Positions 20,421 to 60,090 of a DNA stretch of 64,000 nucleotides are shown here, piece after piece. Position 1 is the stretch's first letter. Each line of letters starts with the position of its first letter. The translations under genes and the position numbers were made by a program. Below the pieces are notes generated by a model that did not search any database, was not told the DNA's origin, and saw only the letters and a program-made list of their open reading frames with translations. The stretch is from Nemertoderma westbladi (lineage: Eukaryota > Animalia > Xenacoelomorpha), in the NCBI GenBank assembly GCA_032718475.1, contig JAUCBJ010003704.1:18261-82260 (forward strand). The letters run 5' to 3'.

Positions 20421-20549
20421 TATTATATATATATCACGCTACACTGAGTAGCAGTATCGGTAATTAATTACTAGGCTAACAGTGATACTGAATTACTAGA
20501 CTTGCTTAAACTGTAATATAGCAGTAGGCATTCAACTGTACAAACCAAC

Positions 20550-28010: not shown

Positions 28011-28043
28011 TACTCTATTATTTAATTATTTTCTTATTTTTAA

Positions 28044-31506: not shown

Positions 31507-31611
31507 TAGTCTGTCAGTTGGTTGGATCCAGTTCTATCACTGTCAGACTGTTAGGGCAGCTGCTAGGATTCTATCTCTGTCAGGGCAGCTGGGCGGATCT
31601 GATTCTGTCAC

Positions 31612-32140: not shown

Positions 32141-35100
32141 GGGCCAATCTATATGGGCCAATCCCTTAATTCTGAATTGCTACCCGGACCCAACTTACTC
32201 CAATCATTGTTGGGAATACTTTTAAGATTAAGACAATATTCCATTGCTTTCGCCTCAGATATAGAAGGCATGTTCTTACAAGTCAAAGCGCTGGATAGGG
32301 ATCGAGATAGCCTACGATTTCTGTGGTGGCCTGAAGGAGACCTCAACCAGAAACCGGTGGAGTACTGGATGACCATCCAAGCTTTTGGGATAATCTCGAG
32401 CCCCTCAAACGCCTGTTCCGTGGTGCGCACCACTGCGGATGACAACCGAGACGCCTTCTCTAAAGAGGTGATTGACAACATTAAGCGGGATATATACATG
32501 GACGACAATCTAAAGTCCCTTCCATCAGTCGAAGAAGCCATCGATGTCGCTAAAGGAACGGTAGAGTGCTTAAAAAGAGGTGGATTTCGATTAACTAAAT
32601 TCACCAGCAACTCCCGTGAGTTTCTGGAGTCGATCCCGGTAGAAGATCGAGGAGCAAAGGACCTGGATCTAATAAAAGATGATCTCCCAGAAACTAAGAC
32701 CCTTGGTTTGAAATGGGACACCGAAAGAGATATCCTGTTTTTCCAACTAAAACAGCGAGATAATCCAGTTCGGACTAAACGGATTTGTTTAAGTATCCTG
32801 AGCACTTATTTCGATCCATTGGGATTTATTAGCCCAGTTATATTGATTGCTCGGAGTTTAGTACAACAAATGTGGCTTGAAAACCACTCATGGGACGATC
32901 CACTTAAGGGAGAATTATTAAAGAAGTGGATGAAATGGGAAGATTCTCTACCAGCCATCGAGAACTTTATAATTTCCCGTTCATATTTTGGTCATGTTCT
33001 CCCTACGTATTCCTATCAACTCCATGTGTTTGGAGACGCCAGCGATATGGGAATAGGTATAGTAGCCTACCTAAGGGTGGAAACTCCGGATGGAATCAAA
33101 GTCGCCTTGGTTACTTCTAAGGCATTGATAAACAATAAGTTGAAAGTTCCTCGAGCGGAGTTAAAAGCGGCTCTATACGCTACAGCCATCGGCCGGAATG
33201 TAACAGAACAGATCGACTATCCACTGGAGAAAACTGTCTATTGGACCGACGCTTTACTCGTGTTGGAGTATATAACCAATGAAGTCTGTCAGTTCAGCGT
33301 CTTCGTTACCAACAGAGTAGCCATTATACTCAGTCGCACAACGATGGATCAATGGAGACATTGCCCCGGAACGATTAATCCAGCCGACATCGCCTCCAGG
33401 GGAGCAACTCCACAGGAACTGGTAGATACTCCAGATTGGCTAGGTGGACCCGACTTCCTCTACAAAGAAGAAGAAGAATGGCCTCCTCATCTTACTACAG
33501 CAGAGATTAGACAGGCCAAGGGAGCGGAGAAAGTCAAACCTAAAACTCGGGCGAGTAAATCGAAGTTATTCAAACCTATGGTAGATCTGTCTGTACTACA
33601 TACTTCCGGAGACGACGCTTTGGATCAGAAACCCACAGCCACAAATAAACTTGTTGTGGAAATCCGTGATAAGGATTGGAAATCTGGAATACCAGACGTC
33701 TCGCAAGGACTCTCACCTCTTCTGCAGAGAGCGATACATCACTACAGTTCCTGGAATCGGCTCTGTAAGGCCGTTACATATTTAAAGAGATGTTTTCACC
33801 ATCACTACTCCGGGATGAAGGCCAAAGGTGATACCGCTCCAATAACATCAGTGCAGGTCCATGTTATTAAAGATCTTCCCAAATATAAGATACCCGACAG
33901 GTTTCTGAAGGAGAAGATCAGTTATCAGGAGCATGAAGAAACCAACAAGCAGATGCTGAGACTCCTGCAATGCTATGAAGATTCCGATAAGTATTTCCTG
34001 TTGTTGAGAAATCCACAGATGCGCTTAAGGGATCGTTTCTCTAGCACAATGATAGATGGGTTGATACGTGTTGGAGGAAGATTAACGAATGCTCCATTAT
34101 CCTTTGACACTAAGTTCCCCATACTCATTAGAAATCTTGAAATACAAGTCAAGATGATTGTAGATGTTCACAGCAAACTTTATCATGCTGGTAGGGAACG
34201 AGTTCTTAGCGAAATTCGAACTCGCTATTATTTTTATAAACCCCGTAGAGCTCTGAACCAAGTTCTTAGGAACTGTATACCCTGTAGGAAAGCATTCAGT
34301 AGGCCTTTAACACAGCGAGAGGCAGAATTACCTAGGGAACGAGTAAGCTTCTATGAACCACCCTTTACTAATACCGGTGTGGATTTATTTGGCCCTATTG
34401 AAGTATATCGTGCTAGGACTATAGTCAAGAGATGGTGTGTAATCTTTGTTTGTATGACTTGTAGAGCTATCCATCTCGATATGGTGAACGATTTATCGAC
34501 CAACAGCTTCCTATTAAGCTTACGACGACAGATCGCTCGCTTTGGCACTAGTAACACGATGAGATCTGATAAGGGAACTAACTTCATTGGTGCCAACAAT
34601 GAAATCAAAGCTTACGTCAAAGATTGGAACCAAAGACAGGTGGACGATCAGCTACGAGTAACAGCGTCTAGCTGGACCTTCAACGCCGCCGACGCCCCTT
34701 GGTGGGGAGGAAGTTGGGAGAGATTAATAAGAAGTGTGAAGACAGCATTTCACTTTATAGTGCCTTGCCGCGCGTATCTCACCGACGAACTTTTGCGGAT
34801 GTTAATGGAGGAAATCGCCGCCTATCTCAACGAGAGACCGCTTATGCCAGTCTCATCGAGTCCCGATTCCCTGGAAGCGCTAACACCCGCGCACTTCCTA
34901 CTGAAGAAACCTGTAGCCATGCTCCCACAATCGGAAATCACAGACGGAGACGAATACTGCCGGCAAACTTGGCAACTCATGCAGTTGTTATCCCGTCGTT
35001 TCGCTGACCATTTCGAAAAACATTATCTGCCCACGCTACAACTTCGAACTAAGTGGTTTGCGCAGCAAGAAAACGTCAGCGCTGGAGACATGGTTCTTAT

Positions 35101-35380
35101 TGTGGATGTAGATCTTCCACGTAAGCGGTGGCAGACAGGTCGTATCATCGAGACTCACATCTCGGATGACGGTTTGGTGCGATCGGTAGAACTCGTCGTC
35201 ATGCGACGTAATTTCAAGAAACCGGGAATTGTCTTCGAGACGCAGCAGCTCAATCGCCCAGTTGGTCGCTTATGTTTACTGGAAAGAGACAGAGAACTCT
35301 CCGGAAACTATGGGATGCAAGATACTCTTCCCACGACCACCTCCCTAATCCAACAAACATCTAGGGACTCCCCAGCTTAG
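32141..35380 (+). CDS. Family-2 BEL/Pao Pol: RT, RNase H, integrase, DUF5641-type C-terminus
   Basis: SLNSELLPGPNLL, DIEGMFLQV, YMDD, HVFGDAS, YWTDA, NPADIASRG, HHCC (HSKLYHAG...CIPC), GVDLFGP, SDKGTNF, WGGSWERL, LTPAHFL. The frame is uninterrupted. Confidence 0.95.
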   Translation, partial: GPIYMGQSLNSELLPGPNLLQSLLGILLRLRQYSIAFASDIEGMFLQVKALDRDRDSLRFLWWPEGDLNQKPVEYWMTIQAFGIISSPSNACSVVRTTADDNRDAFSKEVIDNIKRDIYMDDNLKSLPSVEEAIDVAKGTVECLKRGGFRLTKFTSNSREFLESIPVEDRGAKDLDLIKDDLPETKTLGLKWDTERDILFFQLKQRDNPVRTKRICLSILSTYFDPLGFISPVILIARSLVQQMWLENHSWDDPLKGELLKKWMKWEDSLPAIENFIISRSYFGHVLPTYSYQLHVFGDASDMGIGIVAYLRVETPDGIKVALVTSKALINNKLKVPRAELKAALYATAIGRNVTEQIDYPLEKTVYWTDALLVLEYITNEVCQFSVFVTNRVAIILSRTTMDQWRHCPGTINPADIASRGATPQELVDTPDWLGGPDFLYKEEEEWPPHLTTAEIRQAKGAEKVKPKTRASKSKLFKPMVDLSVLHTSGDDALDQKPTATNKLVVEIRDKDWKSGIPDVSQGLSPLLQRAIHHYSSWNRLCKAVTYLKRCFHHHYSGMKAKGDTAPITSVQVHVIKDLPKYKIPDRFLKEKISYQEHEETNKQMLRLLQCYEDSDKYFLLLRNPQMRLRDRFSSTMIDGLIRVGGRLTNAPLSFDTKFPILIRNLEIQVKMIVDVHSKLYHAGRERVLSEIRTRYYFYKPRRALNQVLRNCIPCRKAFSRPLTQREAELPRERVSFYEPPFTNTGVDLFGPIEVYRARTIVKRWCVIFVCMTCRAIHLDMVNDLSTNSFLLSLRRQIARFGTSNTMRSDKGTNFIGANNEIKAYVKDWNQRQVDDQLRVTASSWTFNAADAPWWGGSWERLIRSVKTAFHFIVPCRAYLTDELLRMLMEEIAAYLNERPLMPVSSSPDSLEALTPAHFLLKKPVAMLPQSEITDGDEYCRQTWQLMQLLSRRFADHFEKHYLPTLQLRTKWFAQQENVSAGDMVLIVDVDLPRKRWQTGRIIETHISDDGLVRSVELVVMRRNFKKPGIVFETQQLNRPVGRLCLLERDRELSGNYGMQDTLPTTTSLIQQTSRDSPA

Positions 35381-38541: not shown

Positions 38542-38651
38542 CTGTTTAGAGTATTTTTATATTTTAGAAACTGTGATTTGTTATATTTTATAGACTTAAA
38601 TCCCATTTTCTGGGAGCGGTGTAAAGGCTTTTGCGTAATTAGCCGGTTATT

Positions 38652-40836
38652 AGTGGCGATAACGAGTGGCGATATCGGCTGGATTCTTACTGGTTGGTAC
38701 ATATGACCATTGTTCTGGATCACTGTGCTTTAGTATTAAGTAAATTCTCCTAGCGACATATCGAAGGAATCGGGAGGTTGTATTCCGGATATATCCAAGT
38801 GCAACACAGCTATCGCTGTAAAAGTATGTTGAGTCAGGCTTATATTTCATGGCGTTAAAGATTACTTTACGGGCAAGGACTGCTTCAACAGAAGCACATA
38901 GTTCTAGTCTGGGGACGGATGTTGCATTGCGTGGAGCAATTTTGCTGTTTGCGGACATAAATGATACTGAAATATCACCTTCACTATTGAACATCCTCAG
39001 ATAGATCACGAAACCAATGCCAAATTCAGATGCATGGGCAAAGACATGCATCTCTCTTCGAACTACAATGCCAAAGTTGTATGGACAAAATGGACGCGGA
39101 ATTAACAAGCTGTCGAGTGTTGAAAGTGACTTTTTCCAATTATCCCACTCAGGACGATAGGAGATGGGGAGTTCTGTATCCCAGCCACATGATTGCAGCT
39201 CTGGAGTAAGTTTGGATTTTATAGGTATCACCTTTCGTTGAATGATACGGCCAGCTAGTAGAACAGGACTAGCAACTCCAATAGGGTCGAAGATTGAGTT
39301 TGATACTGATATTATTCCTCGTCTGGTAAATGGCCTCTCTGGTAATTCGATGTTAATAATAAAATGATCGAGTATTGTATCCCAGGTAATTCCAAGGGTT
39401 TTCTGAAGGCTTGATTCTTTGAGGTGGATTTGTGAAGGATCTACCAAGAGTTCAGACTTTGGGAATGCATCTAACACTCGTGAATCATTAGAGGCTATCT
39501 TGTGGAGTCTTATATTGAACTGAGATAATGCTTTTCTGGCCCCTTTAAGAGTAGATATAGCATCATTATGAGAGTCTTCACTACCAAGACCATCGTCTAC
39601 GTAAAAGTTATCTTCAATGTAGTCTAAGACATTATTGCTTGGGGACGAATTACAATTCTTTGCGGCAAATTTCAAACCGCGAATGGCGATTGGTGGACTT
39701 GGCTTGTTACCGAAAAGGTGAACTTTACTACTATAAACTACGGGTGGATTAGAAGGATCGTTGTCATGGTACCAGAAGTCTCTATGAATTGGTTCAACGA
39801 AGAAACAATAGAACATTGATTCAATATCTCACATAAATCCAACTTTTCCCTCTCTAAACCGTACAATAACATCTCTCAATTGATTGTTTTCATCTGGTCC
39901 CTGGATCAGCTTGTCATTTAGACTGACGCCCTTATACTTGGCAGAGCTATCAAAGACAACACGCGACTTATCTTTCTTAGGTTGAGTAACAACAAACAGT
40001 GGGATATACCAGACCTTTCCTGGTGTACCACGAAGTTCAGTGGGTGTAACCAATTCAAACTTACCAGTACTGATCCAATTACCCATTGACTTCAAACATT
40101 GGTCAAGCTTCTTCTTGTCTAATTTGAGTTTCATAAGTGTATGGTAGGTTCTCATATATACGGCATCTTTGTTATCTGGCATGATTGGCTCATCATCATA
40201 GAATGGGAGTGGGGATTGTATCATACCATTTTCATTGACTTTCATGTGTGGAGCAATCCGTTGTTCGAACAATCTGTCATCAACAGATGTCCCCTGTAGC
40301 TCGTCATCGGGTTGTTGAATAAATATATCCTCTGCAATAGATGCAAGTGGATCAGCGAAGCTGCCCCAATTGTTAGGCAGAAACAACGGTTTGCTAGAAA
40401 GGTGTGAGTGAGCGTTTGTTAATAAGGATATATTACTCTGGACTTGTTGGTTACCTTCTTGACAGATTTCACCAACTAAGGCCCAACCTAGGGGAGTATG
40501 GTCGACAATTGGTGATTGGGATCGATACGTTTTTGTAGTGAGTAATGAATGGCAGTTTCGACCTAGAAGCATTAGAGTCTCGGCAATTTCATCTAGGGGT
40601 GTAAATTTATTAATGAACCCCTTCAGATAGGGAATTGCTTTGACTATTTGTGGGGTTGCAACCTCTGATTTTGCATTTGGGATAGAGTCGTTCGAGTAAA
40701 GAGGTGGTAAGGGGTATGTTTTGGTTTCACCTACTCCTTTGATTGTAAGGCCTTCTGTAATTGTTCCATCGACGTGATATTGGAAGTTACTGAGGGTTGA
40801 GACAGTATAGCTATGAGCAGTTGATGAAATATTAAA
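38652..40836 (-). pseudogene. BEL/Pao protease-RT-RNase H fragment of a different family (family 4)
   Basis: TPLGWAL, WYIPLFVV...RVVFDSSAKY, GFM*DIESMF (in-frame stop at 39829), YVDD, HVFAHAS (catalytic D>H), YSDS, NPADIATR. Confidence 0.88.
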
Positions 40837-43800
40837 CTGACGGTGGGGCGTTCTTCTACGTCTGCTGGAACGAGATCTATTTCCTCTGCCTTCAGGATCT
40901 GTTGTATCGCCTTCATCAGATGATGTAAATCCCTGTCTCTTGGGAGTAGATCGACTTATCATCTGCATATAACTAGCTGTTCTCTGTTTATTTATGTAGT
41001 CTTGCGTCTCTTGAAGATTTTCCAACTCTAGTTGGACTGCCTCTTCAGATGCCCTCCGTTCGGCTGCTGCCACTGCCTCTGCCGCTTTTCTTTCCGCTTC
41101 TACCGCTGCCTCTGCCACTTTTCTTTCCGCTTCTGCCGCTGCCTCTGCCGCTTTTCTTTCCGCTTCTACTGCTGCCTCTGCCGCTTTTCTTTCCACTTCT
41201 ACCGCTGCCTCTGCCGCTTTTCTTTCAGCGTCTAACGCTGCCTCTGCTGCTTTTCTTTCCGCTTCTAACGCTGCCTCTGCCGCTTTTCTTTCCGCTTCTG
41301 CCGCTGCCACTGCCGCTACCATTGCTGCCTTTCTTTCAACTTCTGCCGCCGCCGCTGCTGCTGTCTTCTATCTGTTTTTTCTTTAATTGTTCTTCCTGTT
41401 CCCTAGCGATGAGGATTCTTTCATCAAATTTAGCCTGATCTGCGGCTAACATTTCCGCATCTAATGAGTCTAACACAAATTTGGCTCCCTCACTATTAGG
41501 GTAAAGTCCAACTAGCCATCTCCTCAACTCTTTGTTACCTATAAATCATTGATAGTCCGACAGATAGATGTCAATAGTGTCCTTCTTCTGAGGTTTCTCT
41601 GATGTAACATCGCTTTCCACCTGCGAAAAGGTAGCGTCTGCTGATTCTCCGTGGATCGCGCGCTCAGTTAGCTGAATTTTCCATTGGGTTGTTCCTTGGT
41701 CTTTAAGACTCATCCGTTGGAACCAAGTCTTTACAGTGACTTGCAACGACGTGTCTTGGCTTCTCTTCGAGGCTTCCTCAAAGGTTGAAAGGATTAGTCT
41801 GATTCTTAGGATTCGTTCTCTGACTTGATAAAGCAGCTCTCCCTGTTCTTGAGGTCCTTGGGGTTGTTGAAACAGTTGTTCCTCTAATCGCTCCAAAGAG
41901 CTGAAGAATCCCTGTACATATCCTGCTGCCGACCTCTTCCACACAGCGGGATCTCTAGTGTCCTTTACCATTCCCATCCTGTATAAGTCCTCCCAGGCAG
42001 CTTCCGATAAGTTAAACGGGAGTCCGGGTCCAGGGAAGTTCCATTGCGTCTCGGCAATAGACTTCAGTTCCTCCTTTGTGTATCCTGTATAACTGTCCTT
42101 GGTCGATCGCTTACTTCTCGCCCAGTCGATTTGATGTTCCTCTACCGCAATCAATACTCTAGTAAGTACGGCTTCAGGAAGAATTAGAATTAGAAGGAAG
42201 AATTTGGATCTGAATAAACCGCTTCTGCCATCTTTGCTCCGCGCTCGGGTGTCAACTCTACAGTATCTGAACTACTGGAGCTATCGGGCCGCTGAGAAAT
42301 AAGTTCTCGGTTCCGGTGTTGCTGCTGTTTAACAGCTGCCTCTTGGTCCCGCTTGACTTGAGCCCGAGTGCCTATGATAGACCTACGGTGCTTTACTAGC
42401 CTAGGATCTGATACTACTACTGGAGGGATGACCTTTCTTACAGTAGGAGGGGACTTGGACTTCGGTCTCAAATGTTCGGCACTCCTGTCGGAGTCGCAGA
42501 CTGTTCTTTCTAGGAGACTATCTGACAGAGTTTGCTTTGTGTCAGCCATGTTTGATTGTACAGTTGAATGCCTACTACTATAAACGACAGTTAAATCAAG
42601 TCTAGTAATTCAGTATCAACTGTAAGCCTAGTAATTAATTACCGATATCGTTACTCAATGTAACGCGATATATATATATAATATATTAGGATACCGGTAT
42701 ACACTTATAGTATATATATAAGTATTATTACAGACTAGGATTGATTAGTCACAGAATACCGGTATATAATTTAAGCATAAATATATAGAAATATATATAA
42801 TAAGCCTACCGTAAATACCGGTATACAGCATACACTTATAGTATATATAAGTATGATTATAGACTAGAATTAATTACAGAATACCGGTATATAATTTCAG
42901 CTTAAATTTATAGAAATAAATATAATAAGCATATCATAAATACCAGTAATGTCAATTATTTTACGATGCCTAAATTTCTAAATTTTAGGGTTACTTTCCT
43001 TTACTTTATTACTGTTATTAAGCAGTAGTCCAACTGATATTAAGACCTAATTGATGTATAACAGGCCTACTATTTTATAAATCGGTTTGAGTTGATTTAT
43101 AATATATTATGTACCCGTACAAGGATTTTTGACAATATTTGAAATAAATGTTATTATTTCCAAGTAAGGTGTCACTACACAGACGCGGAACGCTCTCAGT
43201 GGAGTGCTACCTGTTAGACACTAAAACAAATAATTCTATTTTACTAAGTTACTTATTACTACAAATTACGTACAATTACTGTGTAGGATTACAATTTCTA
43301 AATAAACACCAAAAGTTACACGTACAAATTTCAGGGTAATTTTATAGGAATCTACAAACCAGCCTAACAAGGAGTTAGAATTTCTGGTTCTTACAAATGG
43401 ACAGGATACTACGGTATTAGAAAATAATTAAGCAGTAGTAAATAAATTGTGTTGTCCAGATAAGAAAATACCACCGTCTGACGACTTATAGTCTTTAGCT
43501 CTACAGCTCTATAAGTACTACGTTATGTACCCGGAGTGTCCTTACCTAGAAGTTAATTACCGCAGCCAACCAGAGCTAACGTGCCTATTAACCACTTTAC
43601 AACACAAATACACTGCCTACACACTAATTACTTTTGGAAAGCACTGTACACTAAACCCTAAATTAGGTACAAATACTTATACAATAAATAACCAGCAGTT
43701 AAATATACTTTACAGCTAAAAGAACCACGGTATCTGCTGGAGTGACTAGAGCATAAAATCACCAATCTTTACCTACGCCAAGCAGCCCTGATGTAGTACC

Positions 43801-45675
43801 GGGGTTAGTTTAACTATAACGGTATGTATAACAAGCACAATTACTGTAGGAATAAACTTAGGGGTATGTAAGTTGCGAATACTCGCATAGACTCTGAATA
43901 ATAAATATTACGCTACCCGTGCAGACTATACAAACAAAATACAGACCAAATTCTGGCAGACTACTATCTAGCCTAAATAAACTACAGTATATGCAGACTC
44001 CGAAATGGTTAGTTAGTATGCATTCTAACCGAGTAGTACAACTTATTCTTTCCGGGGGGATTTACCTTACAGCACTGGATGCCCCCACCTTCCTAACTAG
44101 TACTTTATCGGACATACACTCTACACACACTGCAATCGCTTCAGACTCAACAACAGTCAGACAACAATCCAGCCTACAAATTATTTGTACAATTTGTGCG
44201 GGCTTACACGCCTTCTGCTCAATATTACACTTACAGATAAATAAAACTGACAGAGATAAATAAGCTCTAAAAGAAACAAGGGGTGTACAGTCCCTAATCT
44301 CTTAAACAGCCTACCAATATACAATATCACAATCGAAATAATCCTGGTACCGGTAAGTACCGGTTCGGGTGGTTGGGTAGTTAGGCCTACAGGTTACCGT
44401 CCGACCGGTACATTCGAATTTATTGCCTACGTGCAATCAAAACAAAAATTCGTCTATTGTTCTTACCAGAACAATAGACAAAATATTTTTGTTTCTAAAG
44501 TTTTAAAATCTATTATTGTTCGCGCTTTCAGACCTTTAGCAGTTTAACCTGCCAATTTTAGGTGTCCTCTTGTTTATAAATCGACTTTAGCCTATAACAA
44601 GTATTTAGTGCACATGAAGTAACATTAGCCGAAGCCAGTCTATGCGTGATCATTCACCCACAGTTAAGGGAGACTGGATTCGTATGCTTTGAAGGGATTG
44701 CGGTGCAGACCTACGGTATTATTCGATTGATCGTTACTATATAATCTCTGACAATATTATTCACTTTCGGGGAAATATTAACAGTTCCTTTAGGACGTGG
44801 CGCTTTAAGTATAAAAACAGAGTTATGACTTATACTAAACACAACGAGATGGCTACTGATTTTCGTAAATAGCGCATTCTTTAGGAGATGCTTTATTATC
44901 TGTCATACTACTGCATACGACTTCACACTGCTGCACACTGATCTGCCGACCGTCACTGAATTTGATCATATATAAGGAGGATAGCAACTGACACATGTAG
45001 GGATCATGAAATAGCATTTAATTCACACAAAAACCACTATAATGTAAGTCGCAATTGCTACAGGTAACCGGTCCCTCTTACCTTCAGTAATCAAGAAGAT
45101 TGGGGTTTTATGATTATTTATCGGTATTCTCCAAATATAACAACATATCCATCAACATATAACAATTAATAACAGACAGTAAACAGAAGTAAATTAGTGA
45201 TAGTTTTATTATACAGCAATGTTTCAGGTCAGATGTGTGACCAGGTTTGATAATAGATTTACGTTCTTGTAATCAAAGCCGTCTAATGTTTGGCCAAAGT
45301 CTGAAACTTCTACAGAAGTACAGAAGAATTTCTAAGCCGATGTTCCGAGGCTAAGAAAAAGGTAAACAAAAACCGTAATGCATTGCGAGGTTTTCCGTAG
45401 GCCTCTGTACAAGATAAAATGAAAATCGCTCCGATTGGCTGAGCGAGCTGAACAAAGAGAGGTTCCACGTTGACAGTAAATCAGCTGACAGATTTCGTCA
45501 TCTGAGTTCCAGTCTTTTAGAGGATTAGGCGCATTGCGGCAGAAAATGGCTTGTTATGTCCGCTAAAGCACTTACACGGTACATTGCGGAGAAAATGGCT
45601 TGTTATGTCCGCTAAAACACCTACACAGTACATTGCGGAGAAAAATGACCTGTTATATCTGCAAAAGCTTTTACA
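40837..45675 (-). mobile_element. Inverted, diverged paralogue of the family-2 5' LTR, leader and Gag N-terminus
   Basis: Minus-strand LTR start TGTAAAAGCTTTTGC at 45675; leader colinear with 17000-20550; Gag fragments 42190-42549, 41546-42154, 41336-41527 and 40837-41322 match the 20550 ORF but are frameshifted. Confidence 0.88.
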
Positions 45676-45719
45676 GTCCGGACCGAATTGTCTGGGACCG
45701 AATTGTCCTACATCCCAGT

Positions 45720-45995
45720 GTGATATGCAATGTGACTGGTATGTTAATAGATTTGCGTTCTTATGACTCTAGCCTCATTTTCCGTAGGCCGCTGTTACCA
45801 GGGCAGGGGAGATTGCTCTGATTGGCTGAAATATGTCAACAAGGGAACATTTCTCAAGCAAAGAAACAGCTGGTAGATTTTGTCATCCCAACTCTCTGTG
45901 TTTCTTGACAGACGCGTAGTTACACGATTCTAAGCTTTTTAGAGTATTTAGCGCATTGCGTAAAATCACTTGTTATGTCCGCAAAAGCTTTTACA
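45720..45995 (-). repeat. Additional partial family-2 LTR
   Basis: Second GCAAAAGCTTTTACA terminus at 45995, plus repeated TTGTTATGTCCGC and GATTGGCTGA motifs shared with 45230-45675. Confidence 0.6.
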
Positions 45996-46983
45996 GGCAC
46001 TGATTGATTCTTTCAGAAAACTGAAAGCGTGCAGGGCCAGCGTTATATTAACAGATTCAACAGCTTCTTCCAATCTGCCAATGGAGACACAAGACACCAA
46101 TAACCGGAAGGAACGGGCCGATCATTTCTTCTTGCATGATTCCCAACGACCCATCCACAGCAACTAACAGGATCGGACTTATAAACGGATCTGAACTTTC
46201 AGTACGGGTACGGTATGCGTATCCCGCCCAAAACAACCAAGTCTCTATCCGCCTCGAGAAAACGAGAAACTCGATCGAAATGCTTCTGGAGGTTTATCTG
46301 TCCGTAATCACCGACCACTACTGCACTACGGATTATGGATTATCCCCGTACCCTTGAGAATTCCTGGTCCCGCAGGCCACAGCTTCCAACCCAATTCGAT
46401 AACGAATTGGAATTGGCCTCCCACTTTCGCATCGCAGAGAATGTAATCTGGTGCGATTCACGTCTGTCAGATGCAGTCGTTAACCCCTCCCCCAAGGCTG
46501 CAAGGTGATCCGGTCCACCGCTAAACACTAAACCCAGATCACATCGCATTCCTTGTCAATGTAAGTCTGACTCTTCCCGCCGCACTCAGTGACTGGAGTA
46601 AGATACTCGGCAGTGGCCCGCATTATAATCCGACCGACCGCTGTGTTCCCAGTGTAAAAAATATAATCAAACATTACTGCTATCATTGTTGCATTGAACC
46701 CAACTACCGGGACGCAAAATACTGCAATCTATAAACCCAGATACATGCTACCGGTAGGCCTACTGGTTAAAAGTAATCTTAATTTAGCGACATTTTATAC
46801 GCAAGTAAATTTATAATGTATGAAAAGACCAAATAAAATTCAATATTAATTTTCATCTGTCTGCATGGATGGTTATTTTTAGATTATCTTTCATTTGGTG
46901 GTCCAGTTCGGTCCAGTTCGCCACTCTTTCGATCCAGTTCAGTTCAGTTCGGTCCAGATTCGAGTACAGTACTATCCATCAGT

Positions 46984-48874: not shown

Positions 48875-49588
48875 ATGGTAGTATATATTTTTGAGGTACG
48901 TTGTTTTGATGCCACCAACGCAATTAATGTTCTAAACCGCAATGGGGAGTTGAATAATATTGACAAAGTCTATCCAGCCATCCACACAATTATTGTGACT
49001 AACTGCTATAGCGAACCTGCCCAATTATTTGTTGGTGGGGAAACCCTATATTCCGAAGAGGGCTCTACCCAAGGGAACACAGATGCCATGCCAACGTTCG
49101 GCTGCGGAATAATGTCACTATTAGACGAGCTGGATTGCGGATCGGATGTAGATCAGAAATGGTTAGCAGACGATGGGTACGTAGTGGCTCGGGTAGTTGA
49201 ACTGAGAAAGTTCTGGGAAATTGTATGGACCAGAGGACCACTGAATGGCTACTACCCATCCAAGTTTTGCTAACAGTCAAACTGGATAATGTGGCTGAAG
49301 CTGACGCATTGTTCTCCAATACAATAGTCTCCCTCAACTCTATGGGGAACAAATTACTGGGTGGCGTTATCGGGACCGATGAATTCCGTGTCGGTTATAT
49401 TGAGGAGGAGTTCGCCGAGGAGGTTGATCGCCTCTCAGAGATCGCCGCAGTGGATCCATACTTTACATACGCAGGTTTAGCGTTTGGGTTGTCCTGCCGA
49501 TGGTGCTTTCTTACGTGAGTAATCCCAGACGCAACTGTTCATTTCGGGAAACTGGAAGATACAGTACAACAGTTCCTTTGCTGATGTC
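48875..49588 (+). pseudogene. Degraded non-LTR RT fragment of a non-RTE clade
   Basis: DATNAINVLNR, SEEGSTQGNTDAM, KWLADDG, GYYPSK, KLLGGVIG; frameshifted. Confidence 0.75.
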
Positions 49589-51650
49589 GATGATGGGGTG
49601 ATGATATCTCCACCTACTGGCTCCAGAAGTCGAGGAAATCCTGCCAAGTACCTAACTGATCTAGACTTTGCTGATGACTTAGGAGTACTCTCAGAATCAC
49701 TAGAGGGAGCCCAACGGCTCCTCAGCTCATTAGAACATGCTGCTTCTAGTGTTGGTCTTTTTATTAACTCCAGAAAGACCAAAATTTTGACAGTTAACTT
49801 TGAAAGTCCTCAGCAAGTCTCTGATCGGATGAGCATAAGCTCAAAAGATGGTATGCTTGAGCATGTGGATGACTTCTGTTACCTGGGATCATGGATCCGG
49901 AAGTCCGGTGAGGACCTTCGAATACGTAAGGCAAAGGCATGGGCAGCCTTGAATAGGCTTTCCAGGATTTGGAAGTCAACGAGAATTAATCGGAAACTTA
50001 AGGTCCGATTATTTAGAGCAGCAGTAGTTCCAGTACTCCTCTATGGGAGTCCATGCTGGTCTCTAACTGCTGAGGACACCAAATCTCTGGATGGTACATT
50101 CACAGGAATGCTACGCCGGGTTTACTGTGTCAAGTACAATGAACACATCTCCAATCAGACTCTATACAACATTGGTTCTTTTCGGGGAATCTCATTGATC
50201 TCGATTGTTGCAAAACTATACAATAGAATTCTATTAAATCGCATCAGGGGTCTCATTTAGAGACTGCTCCGTGGCAATCAGAATGGGTTCCGTAAAGGTC
50301 GTGGGACCATGGAGCCCATTTTGGCACTTGGAAGGATAATTGAAGAGTTATCAAAAAAGAAAGACAGGCATCTGGCTGTTATTTTTGTTGACTTCTTCAA
50401 GGCCTTTGATTCAGTCTCTCGCTCACGTATGTTCAGCATACTTTCATTATATGGGATTCCTGATGAAATTATTGCAGCAATCAGATCAGTATACGATGGT
50501 TCAACAACATTTGTGTCTACTGTTGACGGTGACACAGAACCATTTGAAGTGTTATGGGGCGTCCTCCAGGGAGACACACTTGCACCATTCTTGTTCATAA
50601 TTGTGGTTGACTATGTTCTACGCATGTCCTTAGATCATCATAATGATGATGGGGTGATGATAACTCCACCTACTGGCTCCAGAAGTCGAGGAATTCCTGC
50701 CAAGTACCTAACTGATCTAGACTTTGCTGATGACTTAGGATTACTCTCAGAATCACTAGAGGGAGCCCAACGGCTCCTCAGCTCATTAGAACATGCTGCT
50801 TCTAGTGTTGGTCTTTTTATTAACTCCAGAAAGACCAAAATTTTGACAGTTAACTTTGAAAGTTCTCAGCAAGTCTCTGATGGGATGAGCATAAGCACAA
50901 AGGATGGTATGCTTGAGCATGTGGATGACTTCTGTTACCTGGGATCATGGATCCGGAAGTCAGGTGAGGACCTTCGAATACGTAAGGGAAAGGCATGGGC
51001 AGCCTTGCATAAGCTTTCCAGGATTTGGAAGTCACTGAGAATTAATCGGAAACTTAAGGTCCGATTATTTAGAGCAGTAATAGTTCCTGTACTCCTCTAT
51101 GGGAGTCCATGCTGGGCTCTAACTGCTGAGGACGCCAAATCTCTGGATGGCACATTCACAAGAATGCTACGCCGGGTTCATTGTGTCAAGTACAATGCAC
51201 ACATCTCCAACCAGACACTATATAACATTGGAGGTGTCTCATTGGTTCCCCCAAGCTTGACACTAGAACAAAATCGCCTCCGCTTTGCAGGTCATTGCTT
51301 TCGCCGTGAGGACCAGCCAGTGCATAACCTTGTACTTTGGCAGCCTCATGGAGTGAATAAGCATGGTGGACAGCCCATGACTTTCTTGAGACGCATCTTA
51401 AAGGACACTGGCCTTGAAAATGCGGATGATCTAGCAAATGTCATAGGTGATAGGGAGTTGTGGCGGCGGAATTTTGTCGACAAGCCGGCACTGCATTCTT
51501 AAAAATGCAGCTGCAATGCAGCATGCCGATCCTAGTAGTAGTAGTACTGTAGTAGTAGTAGGTGTTTCATTAATCTCCCCTAGCTTGACACTTGAAAGGA
51601 ACCGTCTCCGCTTTGCAGGAAATTACTTTCGCCATGGGGACCAGCCGAAA
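49589..51650 (+). mobile_element. RTE-clade LINE fragment (outer copy, split into 49589-50175 and 51560-51650)
   Basis: LDFADD...DFCYLGS...LLYGS...LYNIG continues as GVSLISPSLTLERNRLRFAG after the inner insert. Confidence 0.8.
50176..51559 (+). mobile_element. 5'-truncated RTE-clade LINE (inner copy) with (TAG)n tail; RT ORF to 51502
   Basis: FRGISLISIVAKLYNRI, QNGFRKGR, FVDFFKAFDS, GVLQGDTLAPFLF, LDFADD, RLRFAGHCFR, a short 3' UTR and a TAGTAGTAG tail. Confidence 0.88.
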
Positions 51651-51833
51651 GACATCTTTCTCTACATTTGATATGTATAATGCAGACGCAATCCAACATG
51701 CCGATAGTAGCATTAGTATTTATAGATGTTTGTTGATAACAATAGAAAGGTAGAAGAAATATTGGGTGTAAAAGTTTCATCAATTAGTATCTGCTTGTAG
51801 TAATTATTCTATATGTGTACCGACGTTTGCTGA

Positions 51834-52011
51834 GGAAGCAGGACAATTCGGTCCCGGACAATTCGGTCCGGACAATTCGATCCCGGACAATTCGGTCCCG
51901 GACAATTCGGTCCCATTAATTTTATGTTTTGGGACTGAATTGTCCGGGACCGAATCGTCCGGGCCGAATTGTCCGGGACCGAATTGTCCGGGACCGAATT
52001 GTCCTACATCC
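51834..52011. mobile_element. 178-bp MITE with GGACAATTCGGTCCC subterminal repeats (Mutator/Merlin-like)
   Basis: TIR GGAAGCAGGACAATTCGGTCC / GGACCGAATTGTCCTACATCC and perfect 9-bp TSD GTTTGCTGA. Confidence 0.85.
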
Positions 52012-52522
52012 GTTTGCTGAGGCGCATATCCATATACAATATGTTAGACCACACAGCTAAAATCTTCCATATGTAGGTTTTTCGTCTCTGATTTCATTTC
52101 CCATATCAGTTTTCATGTTTGGTAGCATTTGTACAGTTTATAAGTCAGTCCGTTTGTCAGTCGATCTGTCTGTCTTTATACAATATGAAACCCTACAAAG
52201 CTAAAATCCTGGGAATGTCTATTTTCTTGGACTCTGACTTCATTTGCGGTATAGGCCTAATTCTGAAATATCAATGTTTTCACAAGTATTTTTATAATTT
52301 CAAGGAAATGCTAGCTAGTAAAAAAAAACACTAGCTACACCTTAATAAATAATATATAATAATTTTCTCGAACACTACCAATAACAAAAATAAAAAAAAA
52401 TACAGTATTTTTAAAATTTCAAAAAATTCTAGCAAGTAAATAACACTAGCTACCATAACAAATATCTCTAGTAATGTTCTAGAACATTCACCAATATCAA
52501 AAGCACTAAAAAGTTGCTATCA

Positions 52523-52851
52523 GGAACCGGACAATTCGGTCCCGGACAATTCGGTCCTGGACAATTCGGTCCCGGACAATTCGGTCCCGGACAATTCGGT
52601 CCTGGACAATTCGGTCCCGGACAATTCGGTCCCAGACAATTCGGTCCCGGACAATTCGGTCCCGGACAATTCGGTCCCGGACAATTCGGTCCTAGGACAA
52701 TTCGGTCCTAGGACAATTCGGTCCCGGACAATTCGGTCCCGGACAATTCGGTCCCATTTATTTAATGTTTTGGGACCGAATTGTCCGGGACCGAATCGTC
52801 CGGGCCGAATTGTCCGGGACCGAATTGTCCGGGACCGAATTGTCCTACATC
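52523..52851. repeat. Expanded 15/16-bp GGACAATTCGGTCCC/TA array and duplicated MITE right arm
   Basis: About 15 tandem units; 52730-53090 duplicates 51890-52250. Confidence 0.85.
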
Positions 52852-53480
52852 CGTTTGCTGAGGCGCATATCCATATACAATATATTAGACCACACAGCTA
52901 AAATCTTCCATATGTAGGTTTTTCGTCTCTGATTTCATTTCCCATATCAGTTTTCATGTTTGGTAGCATTTGTACAGTTTATAAGTCAGTCCGTTTGTCA
53001 GTCGATCTGTCTGTCTTAATACAATATGAAACCCTACAAAGCTAAAATCCTGGGAATGTCTGTTTTCTTGGACTCTGACTTCATTTGCGGTATCAGTTTT
53101 CAAGTTTGGCAGCATTTGTACAGGTTGTATGTCTGTCCGTTTATATGTCAATATGTGCGTCAAAATTATTATAACACCCCACAAAGCAAAAATATTCGGT
53201 ATGTGCTTTTTATTGGCCCATGTGAAGGATACCAGACATTCTGCCGTTATATTTCACTTTGCAGTTACCCCCATGGGAAGAATACCAGGTTTTCACCAAA
53301 AACACAGGCTACAGAATGGCTGAATCTAACCAAAACAATAAACGAATTAGTATATGTACAGGTTATAAGACAGAAATAAGCGCTATAAAACACTTAATAA
53401 AGATAAATTAAAAAAAAAAAAAAAATCTTCATATAGAAAATTCCAATAAAAAGTCGACAGAAGAGTGAAATCCTAGTATT

Positions 53481-54019
53481 TGTTAACTTATTCAATCCCG
53501 CCAACACCCCATAAAGTTATTAGCCGATAAGCAATATTGGGAGCCACGAGATTGGGCAATTAACCAACTCGTGCCATCCCAATAAGAGTGGGAAGGAAGC
53601 ACACAATAGAGGGTCAGGGGCCAAACCCCTAACCCAGGAGAACAGGTGGAGTGAACGGGAATACTCCACGGGGCGCCAACAAGGGTATTAACCAATCAGA
53701 GGGGGGAATGGCATCGATTGAGTAGCAGTAAGGCCACCGTGCAATATAACCAATAACCTATTAATCAGTGATTCAGTTATCTCAGTGCAGCAGTGCTAGC
53801 GTAGGGTACAGCCAATTAGTTTAGTTAGGGGATCACGGGACTTTAGTTACCGTATCCCGCCTACCGTATACATTCCACAATATATCTATATCCTATAACC
53901 TCTTATTATACACCGAACTTCAGAACTCAGTTATCTTTATTTCACTCTTATACACGGCGGGGACGCGTGGACTAAATACCACATCGGATAAATCGGGATC
54001 CCTCCTGGATCCCGTCACA
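53481..54019 (+). repeat. 5' LTR of family-3 copy B (539 bp)
   Basis: TGTTAACTTATTC...GGATCCCGTCACA, with CCAATCAGA, AATATAA (53743-53749) and TCAGT (~53775). Confidence 0.88.
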
Positions 54020-54098
54020 GTAACTAAATCCGAGCTGTCGCCCTAGTTAAACTCTAAGAACTGCAACCTAGCTAGCCGAATCATCAGCCACAAACGAG

Positions 54099-57000
54099 AT
54101 GAGTGAGTCGGGCGAGACACCACCGCGGACCCCGGACGAAGACCTAACGATCCGCGAGGCCGCGACCAAACGATACAGGCCCACGACGCCGGAGCCATCG
54201 ATAACGGGCGAACCGGAAGCACAGGACGAGGAGGGCCTGGAACCCGAAGTCGAGCCAAGAGAGAGAGAGAGCGAGACGGAGGGAGAGGGAGATGAGTCGA
54301 CACGGGACGGAGAACGGCGCGCCGATGTCGCCGGCCAGCTACCGGCCGAGGGCGACGAGCGGCCCACCGAAACGGCGACGGTGGGGCCGACGGTGCGACG
54401 CCGGACACGAAGAGACGGAGGAGAGATCGGTACCGATGTCGCCGGCCAGCTACAGGCCGAGGGCGACGGACGGCCCACCGGAACGGCGACGGTGGAGCCG
54501 CCGGTACGACGTCGGACCCGGAGGGACGGAGGAGAGGTCGGCGACGAGGACGTCGGGGTTTCTGAGCGACTTCGACGGGCCTACAACGCGACCCGGAAGC
54601 TGATAAACGACGCCAAGAAGGAAGGGGCGAAGGTAGACGAGGTGAGACTGAGAAAGCGACTAGGTGAGTCGGATAGACACTTAAATTACCTAATACGTTT
54701 TGGGCAGAGAGAACTGGCCGGGGAGAGAGCAGAAAGGATAGCCGGCGAACTGTTTGAACTATGGGAGTGTGGGAGTATGGAACCTAGCGTAGCGCCAGTG
54801 TACATAGGGCCATACTTGGTCGATGCCCGGGGAGTGAAACCAGTGGGTTGGAAGGGACCTCGAAGAGGGCGAATCCGAGGTTAACACCGAGGATTCGGCC
54901 TCGTCGGTCGGAGAAAGCTCCGGGAAGTGGGAGAAAGTTAGTAGGTCGGGAAGGCGGGGGAAGTCCGTCGTAACCGATAAGTCTGCTACATCCTCCGCGA
55001 AAGAAAGAGCGGTGAGAAAAATAGGAGCCGCATACCGTCTCAGCATGGCAGAGCAAGGTCAGAGAGAAATGAAGGAACGGCTAGAGGAGGGAAGAGTGCG
55101 GTTAGAGAGGGAAACGGTATTGCTTAGAGAAACCGGAGAAAGGGCCGAAAGGGCTTTGAAAAGCCTAAGGGAGTATGATGAGATAGAGGAAAGGGAGTGT
55201 AGGGAGCGTGAAGCGAGAGAGGAAAGGGAACGCAAGGAGCGTGAGGCGGAACGCAAGGAGCGTGAGGCGAGAATGGAAAAGGAACGCAAGGAGCGTGAGG
55301 CGAGAGAGGAAGGGGAACGCAAGGAGCGTGAGGCAAGGGAGGAAAGGGAACGCAAGGAGCGTGAGGCGGAACGCAAGGAATATGAGACGAGAAAGGAAAA
55401 GGAACGCAAAGAGCGTGGGGCGAGACGAAGGGAGAGCATTAAGAGTGCCGCAGACTCGGCCATCAAGGACACCCAGGAGCGTGAGGGGATAGTGGCAGAG
55501 AGTGAAAAGGAGCGCAAGGAATTAGAGAAACGGCAGAGTGAGTTTGCGGGAAATATAATTAGAGGGGAGCACGAGTTGGAATACGTGCGAGTGGGACCGC
55601 CGTCTGAAACTGGGGCCGGCTCGAGTATTTTTGAGGAGCCGAGGGCCGTAGATATATTTATTAATACTCCACTGACAGGGACCGCACGACAGACCCAAAA
55701 CTGGTGCGACCGTACGGGCGGGGGGGGGGGGGTAATAATAATGGTACAGTAGACGTTGTTGATATTAATAGTACCGTATGGGATAACGCTAATCAAACCT
55801 TTATTACAGGAAATACTTTGCCTGGTGGTAGTAATTTAAATTTAAATCAGAACAATCCCAGTGTTAATGTAGAAAATAATCCTAATATTGATGTAGTTAC
55901 GCAAAATAATTCAAATAATCAAAATAATAACTCGAATTCGGACCTACAAAATAACTTAAATAACGCAATTACACAGAATAATTCGAATAATTCAAATAAT
56001 GATCTTAGCCCGAATTTACAAAATAATTCAGATAACGTAGTCGCGCAGAATAATACAAATGATTTTGTTTCAAATGAGCAAATTAGTTCCGTTTCCAATA
56101 TGGGTGCTATTAATGTAAACACGTCGGGCCACGTAGTTAGTAGACAGGGAGCAGAGGGCCTGGTAGGCCACGTAGTTAGTAGACAGGGAGCAGAGGGCCT
56201 GGTAGGCCACGTAGTTAGTAGACAGGGAGCAGAGGGCCTGGTAGGCCACGTAGTTAGTAGACAGGGAGCTGAGGGCCTGGTAGGCCACGTAGTTGGTAGG
56301 CAGGGAGTAGAGGGCCTGGTAGGCCACGCAATAGCAGAGGGAGAGGCGGGGGTGAATGGACCCGACTGTGGTAGGGTCGATGTGTCGACTAGAGAGGTAT
56401 ATAGTAGCGGGGCGAGAGGTAGCGAAGTTAGATGTAGCGAGTGGGGGGGGGGCTACGAGCACCCCACAACAGAAAGTTAGCGGCGAGAGGGGGGGGGCAG
56501 AGAGTGTCCCACAGCCGTCAGCGGACAATGCGAGGGCCGAACAAGGTAAACCGCAACAACCGGCGACGGAAAGTAATAGGGGGATTGCGAGTATCCCCAG
56601 CGACGTGCGATCGAGCAGAGAAAGACAGGTTGACGTCGCGGGAGGGCAGACGGAGCGTCGAGCCCGATCAGAGGAGGAAAGAAGAACAGTGGGGTTTAAC
56701 CGGGAGGTCGACGAGAGATCTCGTGAGCGGGAATATTCCACTGATAGGAGAAGAGAGGAAGAGAGTAGTAGAAGTATCGCCGCAAAAGATAGAAGAGCGA
56801 GGACGGACAGCGAGCCGTCGGTAGTCGAGATGAGAACGGAGAGTCAGTGGGGTCGGACTCCGGGAGATTGCCGTCGCCCCGGAGGGATGCGATCCGGTGA
56901 GACGCATTACACGCCGAGAGAGGGGTACGCGATGTACCGGTACGAAGATGAAAACAGTGGAGAGGGGGGTCGAAGAGAAACTTTCCGACGGAATATACCT

Positions 57001-57375
57001 ACCGATCGAGAATACGGTAGCCGCGGGGAGGATTATTCGAGAAGAATAAACTTCGATCCCGAGCAACACATGCAGACTGTAGGGCATACTGTAGGTCTTA
57101 CTGCACATACCGTAGGTCATACTGAGAGAGGCAATGTAGGCGATAGGATAGCGCGGACAACGGGATTAAACCCGGAAGTCGCGGAATACATACCGGCGGG
57201 TAGGCCAGAAGCTGATAGGCCTATACCGGTACCAGCACAGCAGTATGACTACAGCATGCAGGGACATAACATATACCCAGGGGAGGGGGGAATTATTGCG
57301 GATAGGTGCATGGGCCCCAACGTATTAACATCAACCCCAGTACCAGACATACCGGTGGGGGGGGGGACAGGGTGA
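54099..57375 (+). pseudogene. Family-3 copy B Gag N-terminal extension, frameshifted (four overlapping ORFs)
   Basis: ORFs 54099, 55012 (ERKERE repeats), 55704 (Asn-rich, GLVGHVVSRQGAE x5) and 56356 are colinear with copy A; most breaks fall in G homopolymers. Confidence 0.75.
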
Positions 57376-57409
57376 CATTCCCCCATCACAATATCAACAA
57401 TATACCCCG

Positions 57410-58880
57410 ATGGTAGCAAGAACAACGAGACCCTTGGACGAAAACAGGTCGTGTGATACAGACATATGGAGGGGGCCGCTACCCCCGATGACATATCCGA
57501 GTCAGAGAAGATCAAGAAATAGGACGGACGAACCGCACCAGACAGGGGAAACTATACGGCACCCGTCGAATCCATTAGAAGCGCAGGCAATGGGGATGGC
57601 CACGTTGATCGATGCGTTGAAAACGAGGATCGAATTACCACCCGTGGAACCGTTCAAATTCGATGGGAGCAGGCCGGAAGAATACTTACAGTTTCGGCGA
57701 ATGTATAGTAGCGAAATACTAACAAAAAACTTGACGCAGGCGGAGTGCCTAAAATATCTACAAGTGTACACGGGAGGCCCAGCATACGATATCGTGAGGC
57801 AATACCAAGGAATAGAGGGCGGCTTCACGACAGCATGGCGGGCACTGGATAGGGAATACGGGCACCCGGCCAAGATCATCAGGCAGACGCTGAGAGGCAT
57901 AACATCGGGTGGCCTACAGGATAACCCCGTTAGCATTAAGACGTTTGCTAACAAAGTCGAGAAGGCGCTGATCGTGCTGAAGACGCTAGACGCGCCATAC
58001 GAGCTCAACGCGTCCAATAACATCACCACGATAGCGCAGGCACTACCGAGTTGGCTGCGCAACAAATGGAGGAAGATCGCTTTCTCCACCCGAGACAAGA
58101 AGGGTGCGGAACCAGGTTTAGAAGAAATGTCAAACTTCTTAAATTACGAGGCCGAACTAATAACGGACCCAGTTTATAGTGAAGATAGCCTGGGAAAGGG
58201 ACCAAAGACAGATCACTACAGGCCCAAACCAGAGCACAATACATCGAACGCGTTACCGAGACTCAGGCAATCATTGCCATACGCAGCGACGCAGGGGACT
58301 GCAAGTCCACAGACAAGCGAAGATAAGACAACATCAAGGGACGGACAGGGGAACAATAACAACATGAATAAACATAACCCCAGTACGTCCAGTAGGCCAA
58401 ATCCAGTCAATAAGAATAGTAGGGACTTTGGTACAAATATAACTGCGATACGCAACGCATTGTATAAAGAGGGCTACGACCCAAAGAGCAAATGCCAGTT
58501 ACACGCAAATGCGCTTCATAAAACCATGAACTGCAGGTACTGGCAGGCGCTACCGAGGCAAGACCAGATAGATTACACGTCGAGCAATAAAATCTGCTCG
58601 CGATGTGTAAAGAGTGGACACAAGGCCAGGGAATGCCAAGAGAAGCCGGTCAAGTTTGGCCAAAGGAGAGGCCAGACGATGGCAACGAGCACGGTAGGGG
58701 CGAAGAAGAGAGGAACAGTGCTACTTGGAGTAGTACCAGTACGAGTGATCGGGGAAGGCAATCGATCAGTAACAACACTAATGCTGGTTGATAGTGGAGC
58801 TGCCTTCACATTAGTTGAGGAATGGGTAGCCGAAGAAATAGGGTTGAGAACGAGGCCAAGCAGGATGGCGGTGATGGGAC
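57410..58880 (+). CDS. Family-3 copy B Gag capsid (DUF1759-like), zinc knuckles and aspartic protease start
   Basis: ELPPVEPFKFDGSRPEEYLQF...LKYLQVYTGGPA...LDREYGHP, CQLHANALH..C, CSRCVKSGH..C, MLVDSGA. Confidence 0.88.
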
Positions 58881-59384
58881 ATTGTCCTAGGACCGAATTG
58901 TCCGAGAACCGAATTGTCCTAGGACCGAAATGTCCGGGACCGAATTGAACTAGGACCGAATTGTCCTAGAACGGAAATGTCGAGGACCGAATTGTCCTAG
59001 AACCGAATTGTCCTAGGACCGAATTGTCCTAGGACCGAATTGTCCAAGGACCGAATTGTCCTAGGACCGAATTGTCCTAGAACGGAATTGTCCTAGGACC
59101 GAATTGTCCTAGAACCGAATAGTCCTAGGACCGAATTGTGCGGGACCGAATTGTCCTAGGACCGAATTGTCCTAGGACCGAATTATCCTAGGACCGAATT
59201 GTCCTAGGACCGAATTGTCCAAGGACCGAATTGTCCTAGGACCGAATTGTCCTAGGACCGAATTGTCCTAGGACCGAATTGTCCTAGTTCCGAATTGTCC
59301 TAGGACAGAATTGTCCTAGGTCCGAATTGTCGTAGGACCGAATTTTCCGGGACCGAATTGACCGGGAACGAATTGTCCGTTTCC
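58881..59384. repeat. 16-bp tandem array GGACCGAATTGTCCTA (~30 copies) ending in TIR-like GTCCGTTTCC
   Basis: Same unit as the 51834 MITE, in opposite orientation to the 52523 array. Confidence 0.9.
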
Positions 59385-59679
59385 TCATTGAAATATAATT
59401 CGGACCAAAAACAAAATACTATAAAAATTGAAATACAAATGCTTAGCTACTTATTTAGCAAATATTAATATGTAAAAATTCAAGAATAAATATCTATTAA
59501 ATTAATAGCTTAATTTAATTTAATTTGATCACGGACAATTCGATCCCGGAAAATTCGGTTCCATTAATATGTATGTTATGGGTCCGAATTGTCTTAGTCA
59601 GTATCCGGACAATTCGGTCCCACAACATTAAATTAATAGGACCGAATTGTCCGGGACTGAATTGTCCTGCTTCCTTTTT

Positions 59680-60090
59680 CTTGGTGTCTGCTTATTTTCG
59701 ATATCAGTTTTCATGTTTGGTTGCATCAAAACTGTCTGTCTGTCTGTCGCTTATGTCTGTCATTCTATCTGTGAAAATATGTTTTATCACATCACAAATC
59801 TAAAATATTCGGTATGTGTGTTTTGTTGGTTTCCGATATCAATTTTTATGTTTGGTGGCATCTAAACAGTTTGTTTGTAAGTCCGTTTATTTGTCAATAT
59901 GTCTGTCAAAAGATAACAAATCACACACAACGCTAAACTCTTTTGAATGTGTGATTTCTTGGACTATCTCTTCATTTCTGGTATCAATTTTCATGTTTGG
60001 TGGCATCTAAACTGTTTGTCTGTCTGTCTGTTTGTCTGTCAATCCGTCTGTTAAATTATATTATATCACACCACATAGTTAAAATCTTAT
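59680..60090. repeat. Degenerate ~130-bp repeat with (TGTC)n, same family as 52080-53200
   Basis: Recurrent ATATCAGTTTTCATGTTTGGTGGCAT...CTGTCTGTC. Confidence 0.65.

Follow-up and report, generated by a model that had tools for sequence, protein, structure and literature searches.

Two defective BEL/Pao retrotransposons in the genome of Nemertoderma westbladi, likely self-primed by a piece of their own 5' transcript

In the retrotransposon Tf1 the primer of reverse transcription is the first 11 nt of the element's own RNA, according to the accessible part of one account (PMC7175516). The accessible parts of the papers that deal with self-priming place it in the Tf1/sushi group, in Tcn1 and in the TAR lineage only, together with an unexplained case in Skipper (PMC6317226, PMC4600332, PMC7175516, PMC3601003, PMC5443660, PMC5006619). 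The ICTV profile of the Belpaoviridae describes these elements as tRNA-primed, and tRNA priming has itself been proposed to be a late addition to LTR elements (PMC3601003, in its accessible text). We found no paper on self-priming or on an intron-built primer in BEL/Pao elements, in a search that did not cover subscription journals, Repbase reports and supplements, so that a prior mention is possible. In four BEL/Pao surveys the words "PBS" and "tRNA" are absent from the main text. The supplements of PMC3118150, PMC6238403 and PMC8556966 might annotate primer sites.

We have analysed two related elements, copy A and copy B, found in a window of 64,000 nt (the whole stretch of DNA considered here). 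Their parts, with those of a neighbouring element, are the following, in window positions.

20517-35380, + strand: another BEL/Pao element, given as context and separate from the A/B family, with DUF1759, Peptidase_A17 and DUF5641; its RT region is interrupted by copy A
25412-25939, - strand: copy A 3' LTR, 99.8% identical to the copy A 5' LTR
25940-28044, - strand: repeat-rich non-coding region of copy A that replaces pol, with a polypurine tract at 25940-25948
28044-31494, - strand: copy A gag, in which an internal deletion relative to copy B removes the DUF1759 region
31612-32140, - strand: copy A 5' LTR, 529 bp
53481-54019, + strand: copy B 5' LTR, 539 bp, with TG...CA ends, aligning end to end with the copy A LTR
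54099-58870, + strand: copy B gag and start of the protease, in five reading-frame segments (four frame changes), with DUF1759 and two zinc knuckles
58881-59411, no strand assigned: 15/16-bp satellite array that cuts copy B short within the protease

Copies A and B are both defective. Neither encodes a reverse transcriptase, RNase H or integrase, and no further copy B sequence was found downstream of the satellite array. Copy A is a young non-autonomous derivative, and about 2.1 kb of strand-biased short tandem repeats stand where its pol would be (25940-28044). The BEL/Pao-type Gag claimed in the preliminary description was borne out by the DUF1759 match of copy B (E 5.2e-12), a domain deleted in copy A, and the TG...CA ends of the LTRs and the polypurine tract are also those of BEL/Pao elements. 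At E <=1e-10 the Gag matches 378 proteins, and 23 long ones, taken from those matches and one cluster, aligned with BEL RT-RNase H. The closest Gag relatives in the full HMMER search are only 23-34% identical, and out of ten of the best that were looked up only two were named, both uncharacterised ribbon-worm proteins. Word-indexed protein searches with the copy B Gag gave no matches, and the HMMER protein search found no close family member with pol. The Gag of BEL/Pao elements is said to carry three Cys-His knuckles (PMC554778, accessible part); there are two in copies A and B and three in the neighbouring BEL/Pao element, and the pattern by which they were sought is too strict to decide, having given only two in 11 of 15 other loci as well.

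A target-site duplication, another character of BEL/Pao elements, is absent from the flanks of copy A, and one of 5 bp was present at both of the two other loci checked (L026 and L101). The TG...CA ends of copy A are flush and its LTRs nearly identical, yet the adjoining sequences (25407-25411 and 32141-32163) hold no such duplication, and the 9 nt next to its 5' end duplicate a 9-mer that starts 14 nt further on. These flanks look like break repair with templated filler rather than a clean integrase reaction. No 5' LTR matching the 3' end of the neighbouring BEL/Pao element was found in the window, which makes this element unusable as an internal control. Two inverted segments (17050-22100 and 38650-46000), 80-86% identical, share about 3 kb of AT-rich leader and Gag N-terminus and run on into different BEL/Pao sequences, and a motif starting TGTAAA recurs at 16965, 38620, near 45675 and 45995. 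The same 15/16-bp satellite lies on both sides of copy B in opposite orientations (51830-52860 and 58880-59680), and non-LTR reverse transcriptase fragments (RVT_1, DUF6451) with a partial tandem duplication spaced by 1056 bp occupy 49523-51502.

The features around the end of the 5' LTR are these.

31603-31611, - strand: predicted primer-binding site of copy A, pairing with the core arm 31797-31789
53842-53850, + strand: core primer arm of copy B, 9 nt, complementary to 54020-54028
53851-53965, + strand: second helix (53851-53861 with 53956-53965), which adjoins the predicted cut and closes a variable AT-rich loop, with no variant sites in its arms
53994-54014, + strand: U5 hairpin just before the LTR end, common to both copies, with variants in the loop only
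54020-54031, + strand: predicted primer-binding site of copy B, directly 3' of the LTR, without TGG
54041-54076, + strand: leader segments of copy B that extend the pairing colinearly to 53795-53830 (pair probabilities 0.88-0.98; shuffle test)

The preliminary description had placed the end of the copy B LTR at 54019, followed by no TGG, and all its coordinates proved correct. The tRNA-type site (TGG) that the ICTV gives for BEL/Pao elements is absent after the LTR in both copies, and the site found there is complementary to the element's own 5' LTR, as in the Tf1/sushi group. In copy B, 54020-54028 and 53842-53850 are exact reverse complements of each other (9 bp), and three more pairs follow beyond one bulged C; the bulge is common to both copies, and the duplex in the window amounts to 9 bp plus 2-3 pairs after it. 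The colinear continuation of the pairing between leader and LTR, also claimed earlier, was found as well: 54041-54053 pairs with 53818-53830 by 11 Watson-Crick and two G-U pairs (mean pair probability 0.96), and 54061-54076 with 53795-53811 in three short helices (0.88-0.98). In copy A (31611-31603 with 31797-31789) the three differences from copy B on one arm are all matched on the other arm, and a blind RNAalifold run on the two copies recovered the core helix with its three double changes, in agreement with the three compensatory changes in 9 bp first noticed. The chance of matching sites and bases for three changes in nine is about 4e-4 to 1.5e-3. Each 9-mer complement is found once within its own LTR, and in both copies the covarying helix ends at the LTR boundary, again as first described.

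The primer/leader duplex is stronger than in 995 of 1000 dinucleotide shuffles for copy B and 992 of 1000 for copy A (z about -3.1 to -3.2), and crossing primer and leader between the copies weakens it by 13-16 kcal/mol (-26.6 against -42.6 and -38.8 against -51.6 kcal/mol). When copy A is folded alone, the core helix has a probability of only 0.11-0.12 and a rival fold is 0.9 kcal/mol lower. One part of the earlier picture, the pairing over the Gag ATG, turned out to be weak, with the full fold of copy B taking another partner there and the matching helix of copy A lying well upstream of its ATG. The second helix was rejected as a general BEL/Pao feature (mean z -0.45 over 25 other loci). The one match to Rfam, at 14.9 bits against a cut-off of 65, was dismissed.

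Variation within the family was assessed with contigs from three DNA runs aligned to 53828-54045 (218 nt), counting variant sites at a frequency of at least 2%. None of the 29 variant sites fell inside the core helix, the adjoining second helix or the stem of the U5 hairpin (54 of the 218 nt; P 1.3e-4), a result possibly inflated by mapping bias, since contigs with changed conserved arms may fail to align. Seven of the 29 lie in weaker paired parts. The family contigs list no new arm variants, and covariation within the family is that between the two copies only. A 23-nt LTR pattern had no matches in metagenome contigs, and ten matches of a 19-nt LTR pattern to viral contigs were rejected as chance, all being only 19-21 nt long.

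Where the transcript would begin was predicted from the following features.

31789-31834, - strand: predicted self-primer of copy A, 46 nt, with the core arm at 31797-31789
53743-53749, + strand: TATA-like box, 30-31 nt before the Inr-like site in both copies
53773-53778, + strand: Inr-like site, with a transcription start predicted at 53775 from motifs
53775-53850, + strand: predicted self-primer of copy B, 76 nt, whose 3' end would fall at 53850

The TATA-like box and the Inr-like site are what we take to be promoter elements by their core-promoter consensus. Positions +1 to +46 pair with the leader at a mean probability of 0.49 and 0.63, against 0.09 and 0.17 for the 80 nt upstream of the predicted start. 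Among 13 relatives with a full LTR start, only six have a TATA or Inr motif, at very different distances. The primer lengths of 46 and 76 nt put forward in the preliminary description, to be set against the first 11 nt of the transcript in Tf1, stand as predictions given transcription from the Inr-like site, and the start itself is predicted from motifs only.

We then have the wider question of other BEL/Pao elements. With a BEL/Pao pol alignment as query we collected 80 metagenome loci (the best 80 of 567) and 15 loci from genome records, out of which we picked by hand the 50 that offered some 5' sequence together with a Gag start that could be recognised; the other 45 were too short, started within the coding region or, in the case of L039, had a broken start. 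For each ACA or ATA upstream of Gag, the sequence that follows was tested for a perfect complement further upstream. The best self-complement reached at least 11 bp in 18 of the 50 loci, against 3 of 100 controls. Many of the arms start right after a pyrimidine-rich YAG and then continue into the exon that precedes a splice donor. When any GT..AG was permitted, with no filter on donor or acceptor, at least 11 bp were found in 17/50 loci against 1/50 and 1/50 in controls, and a consensus donor with a pyrimidine-rich acceptor accompanied 13 of these 17 top matches but neither of the two in the controls. We rely on this unfiltered scan; the 13/13 consensus donors of another scan were discarded as partly circular, 12 cases having been chosen with a donor filter.

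The tally of these 50 loci from other hosts is 30 of self type, with a self-complement of 10-14 bp at the primer site, six of TGG type and 14 without a clear site. For 20 of the self-type loci the best match, or the only complete one, spans a predicted GT-AG intron within the LTR. The other ten have no predicted intron; among these, L062 was read by eye and L089 is without its upstream part. The donor of L036 is weak. For L092 the top match in the intron-free scan is an internal LTR hairpin and not a primer site, its junction match having come from the scan that allowed any GT..AG. Among the 14 loci without a clear site there is no TGGTCC- or TGGTTC-type site, and five are close RT neighbours of self-type loci; one locus outside the 50 (L072) is of TGG type. 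The end of the LTR is fixed independently by a second LTR in five self-type loci (L013, L019, L026, L051 and L091), and in the other 25 it was inferred from the ACA/ATA motif within the same scan. The primer sites are very diverse, with 25 distinct 10-mers among 26, and still 25 of the 26 begin with GT or AT (23 of 24 loci; the background at offsets 0-4 is 26 of 120 positions), which points to a fixed register of the primer 3' end. The self helix starts 0-5 nt after the LTR end. TGG-type sites follow spacers of 0-6 nt (L015, L032, L046, L063, L083 and L101), so that spacer length is variable in tRNA-type BEL elements too. At one locus, L091, the energy of a 45-nt duplex ranks the consensus donor only 20th of 92, and extended pairing thus does not single out that donor.

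Among close RT relatives, primers with and without an intron alternate (L051, L062 and L035; L026, L028, L041 and L024), which suggests that the LTR intron has been lost or gained repeatedly. No BEL/Pao loci were found in viral contigs. The 15 loci from genome records (L091-L105) are animal-type elements inside bacterial records, namely MAGs and a single Wolbachia chromosome, and most likely represent contamination from the host.

In a tree of the RT-RNase H segment, which is unrooted, has no outgroup and so leaves gain and loss indistinguishable, seven TGG-type and 29 self-type rows are separated by one change (support 100/96; 0/500 shuffles; L092 omitted, its segment being too short). A FastTree of 99 rows agrees, for the labels assigned at that stage. 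In a tree of 29 rows the copy B Gag falls outside the TGG group on a long branch, where neither a neighbour nor a placement among the self-type loci is supported, and its tblastn scores are higher with self-type loci than with TGG loci (p 0.012; 28 and 5 rows, respectively, related rows not being independent). Since 30 of the 50 loci are of self type and fall on one side of a single RT branch, the self-complement is a broad BEL/Pao trait, and not a version peculiar to one family as had been thought at the outset.

Several other explanations have to be weighed. The pairing could belong to a fold of the 5' leader with a structural or regulatory role, in translation, dimerisation or packaging, with something else as primer. 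Its extent of up to 76 nt is far beyond the needs of priming and in copy B may reach the ATG, and the near-equal alternative fold of copy A is what one would expect of a switch. However, neither copy has a TGG after its LTR, the helix starts 0-5 nt past the LTR end, where TGG-type relatives hold their site, the nearly constant GT/AT start implies a defined end, and the TGG and self types are mutually exclusive on the RT tree. We consider a leader fold of this kind improbable. Somewhat less probable still is self-priming by the copy of R at the 3' end of the RNA (at the polyadenylation site, for instance) or by another transcript, short or spliced, acting in trans. The arm does lie in R and is therefore present at both RNA ends, and at L091 an AATAAA starts 1 nt past the arm. 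Against this, the 40 nt or so that precede the primer end hold no AATAAA or ATTAAA in any of 24 loci, nor in A or B, and a polyadenylation signal lies downstream of the arm in 13 of the 24, which means that the natural RNA end differs from the end of the arm; besides, the pairing in A and B extends as far as the predicted start. None of the tests made here speaks against a 5' fragment that acts in trans.

At the copy A site the initial 7 nt presumably resemble the complement of a tRNA-Asp anticodon loop. A tRNA fragment or another small RNA of the host might prime, the match in the LTR being incidental, and half-tRNA priming is known in Ty1/copia lineages (PMC6317226, accessible part). Nevertheless, A and B differ at three of nine positions, each matched in the element's own LTR, and the different 10-mers of the relatives would require as many host RNAs, each of them matching the LTR of its element too. 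No tRNA genes were found within the 64-kb window. We hold this explanation to be very unlikely, and we would say much the same of chance, or of a functionless inverted duplication at the DNA level, for which one could invoke that there are only two copies in the window and that the shuffle z values are near -3. The same position is taken in 30 other loci, the helices are free of variants, and a match that needs a splice junction to be complete cannot be a palindrome in the DNA; the survey scans and the RT tree have largely refuted chance already.

We believe that copies A and B are defective BEL/Pao elements likely self-primed, as Tf1 is, by a piece of their own 5' transcript, and that the arrangement is likely widespread in BEL/Pao; the function that the preliminary description thought most likely is thus supported, as far as sequence evidence goes. 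The feature works like the self-priming of Tf1 but stands outside the Tf1 group. Several observations count against this reading: the low probability of the core helix when copy A is folded alone, a duplex in the window that is shorter than the 10-14 bp of the relatives, predicted primers far longer than the 11 nt of Tf1, the scarcity of promoter motifs among the relatives, a second helix that is not general, the unsupported position of the Gag, the 25 self-type LTR ends inferred within the scan itself, the 14 loci with no clear site and the missing target-site duplication of copy A. Transcription would begin at the Inr-like site, and the 5' 46-76 nt of the RNA would fold back onto the leader. 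The RNA would be cut at the end of the core arm (53850 in B, 31789 in A), probably, as the analogy with Tf1 suggests, by an RNase H that an intact family member supplies in trans. The 3' end released in this way would face the base that immediately follows the LTR, and RT, for A and B also supplied in trans, would extend it through U5. In the 20 relatives with a predicted intron the final 4-10 nt of the primer would be provided by the second exon, so that splicing of the LTR intron would complete the primer. As the first DNA strand does not include a copy of the primer piece, we propose that the intron is kept by copying the LTR from the 3' end of the RNA. Plus-strand synthesis may copy the last primer bases, and the site would then be rewritten from the primer in every cycle; the covariation and the matches that span a junction would both follow from this. 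A study of Tf1 reportedly states in its title that the primer is not removed.

We also incline, with less assurance, to a wider reading, in which self-priming is usual and possibly ancestral in BEL/Pao and tRNA use is limited to a single branch. The spliceosome would, in many lineages, build the primer from two LTR exons, coupling splicing to replication and letting the LTR intron persist, and the family in the window would branch deeply, have no intron and stand out by the length of its colinear primer/leader duplex. This is also relevant to the question of whether LTR elements acquired tRNA priming late. If most lineages do self-prime, revision would be due for the official description as tRNA-primed, for the annotation of BEL/Pao elements on the basis of tRNAs and for the idea that tRNA fragments can silence them. 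A primer completed by splicing, if true, would connect RNA processing with reverse transcription in a new way.

The closest known systems are Tf1 and Tf2 of Schizosaccharomyces pombe, Tj1 and the other Tf1/sushi chromoviruses, including the plant Tcn1, with which A and B share a site complementary to their own 5' LTR transcript and not to a tRNA. Most of the BEL/Pao relatives also resemble them in a duplex of about 11 bp, and there is a U5 hairpin adjoining the site; Tf1 is said, from the title of a paper, to need a U5-type structure next to its site. However, the Tf1/sushi elements have proteins of Ty3/gypsy chromoviruses, whereas the Gag found here is of the DUF1759 type, that is, from another superfamily. 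The primer of Tf1 has 11 nt, in contrast to the predicted 46-76 nt with extended pairing of A and B, and the BEL/Pao relatives differ from it in having spacers of 0-5 nt and, in 20 of 30, a primer predicted across an intron. The cut and the priming have been demonstrated experimentally in Tf1; here both are predictions from the sequence. Nematode BEL elements of the Cer7 type are reportedly proposed to bring their own primer, a tRNA-like fold encoded near the 3' end; they are alike in that the element supplies the primer but different in that this is not a piece of the R region pairing at the LTR boundary. The TAR lineage (Houba, Osr-1) offers another self-priming predicted from sequence outside Ty3/gypsy; these are plant Ty1/copia elements, and the accessible part of their description makes no mention of an intron-built primer (PMC6317226). 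Finally, with the Belpaoviridae as described by the ICTV the elements share the TG...CA LTRs, the polypurine tract, the type of Gag and the protease following it, and the TGG-type site of that description is present in seven of the loci collected here; copies A and B have no such site.
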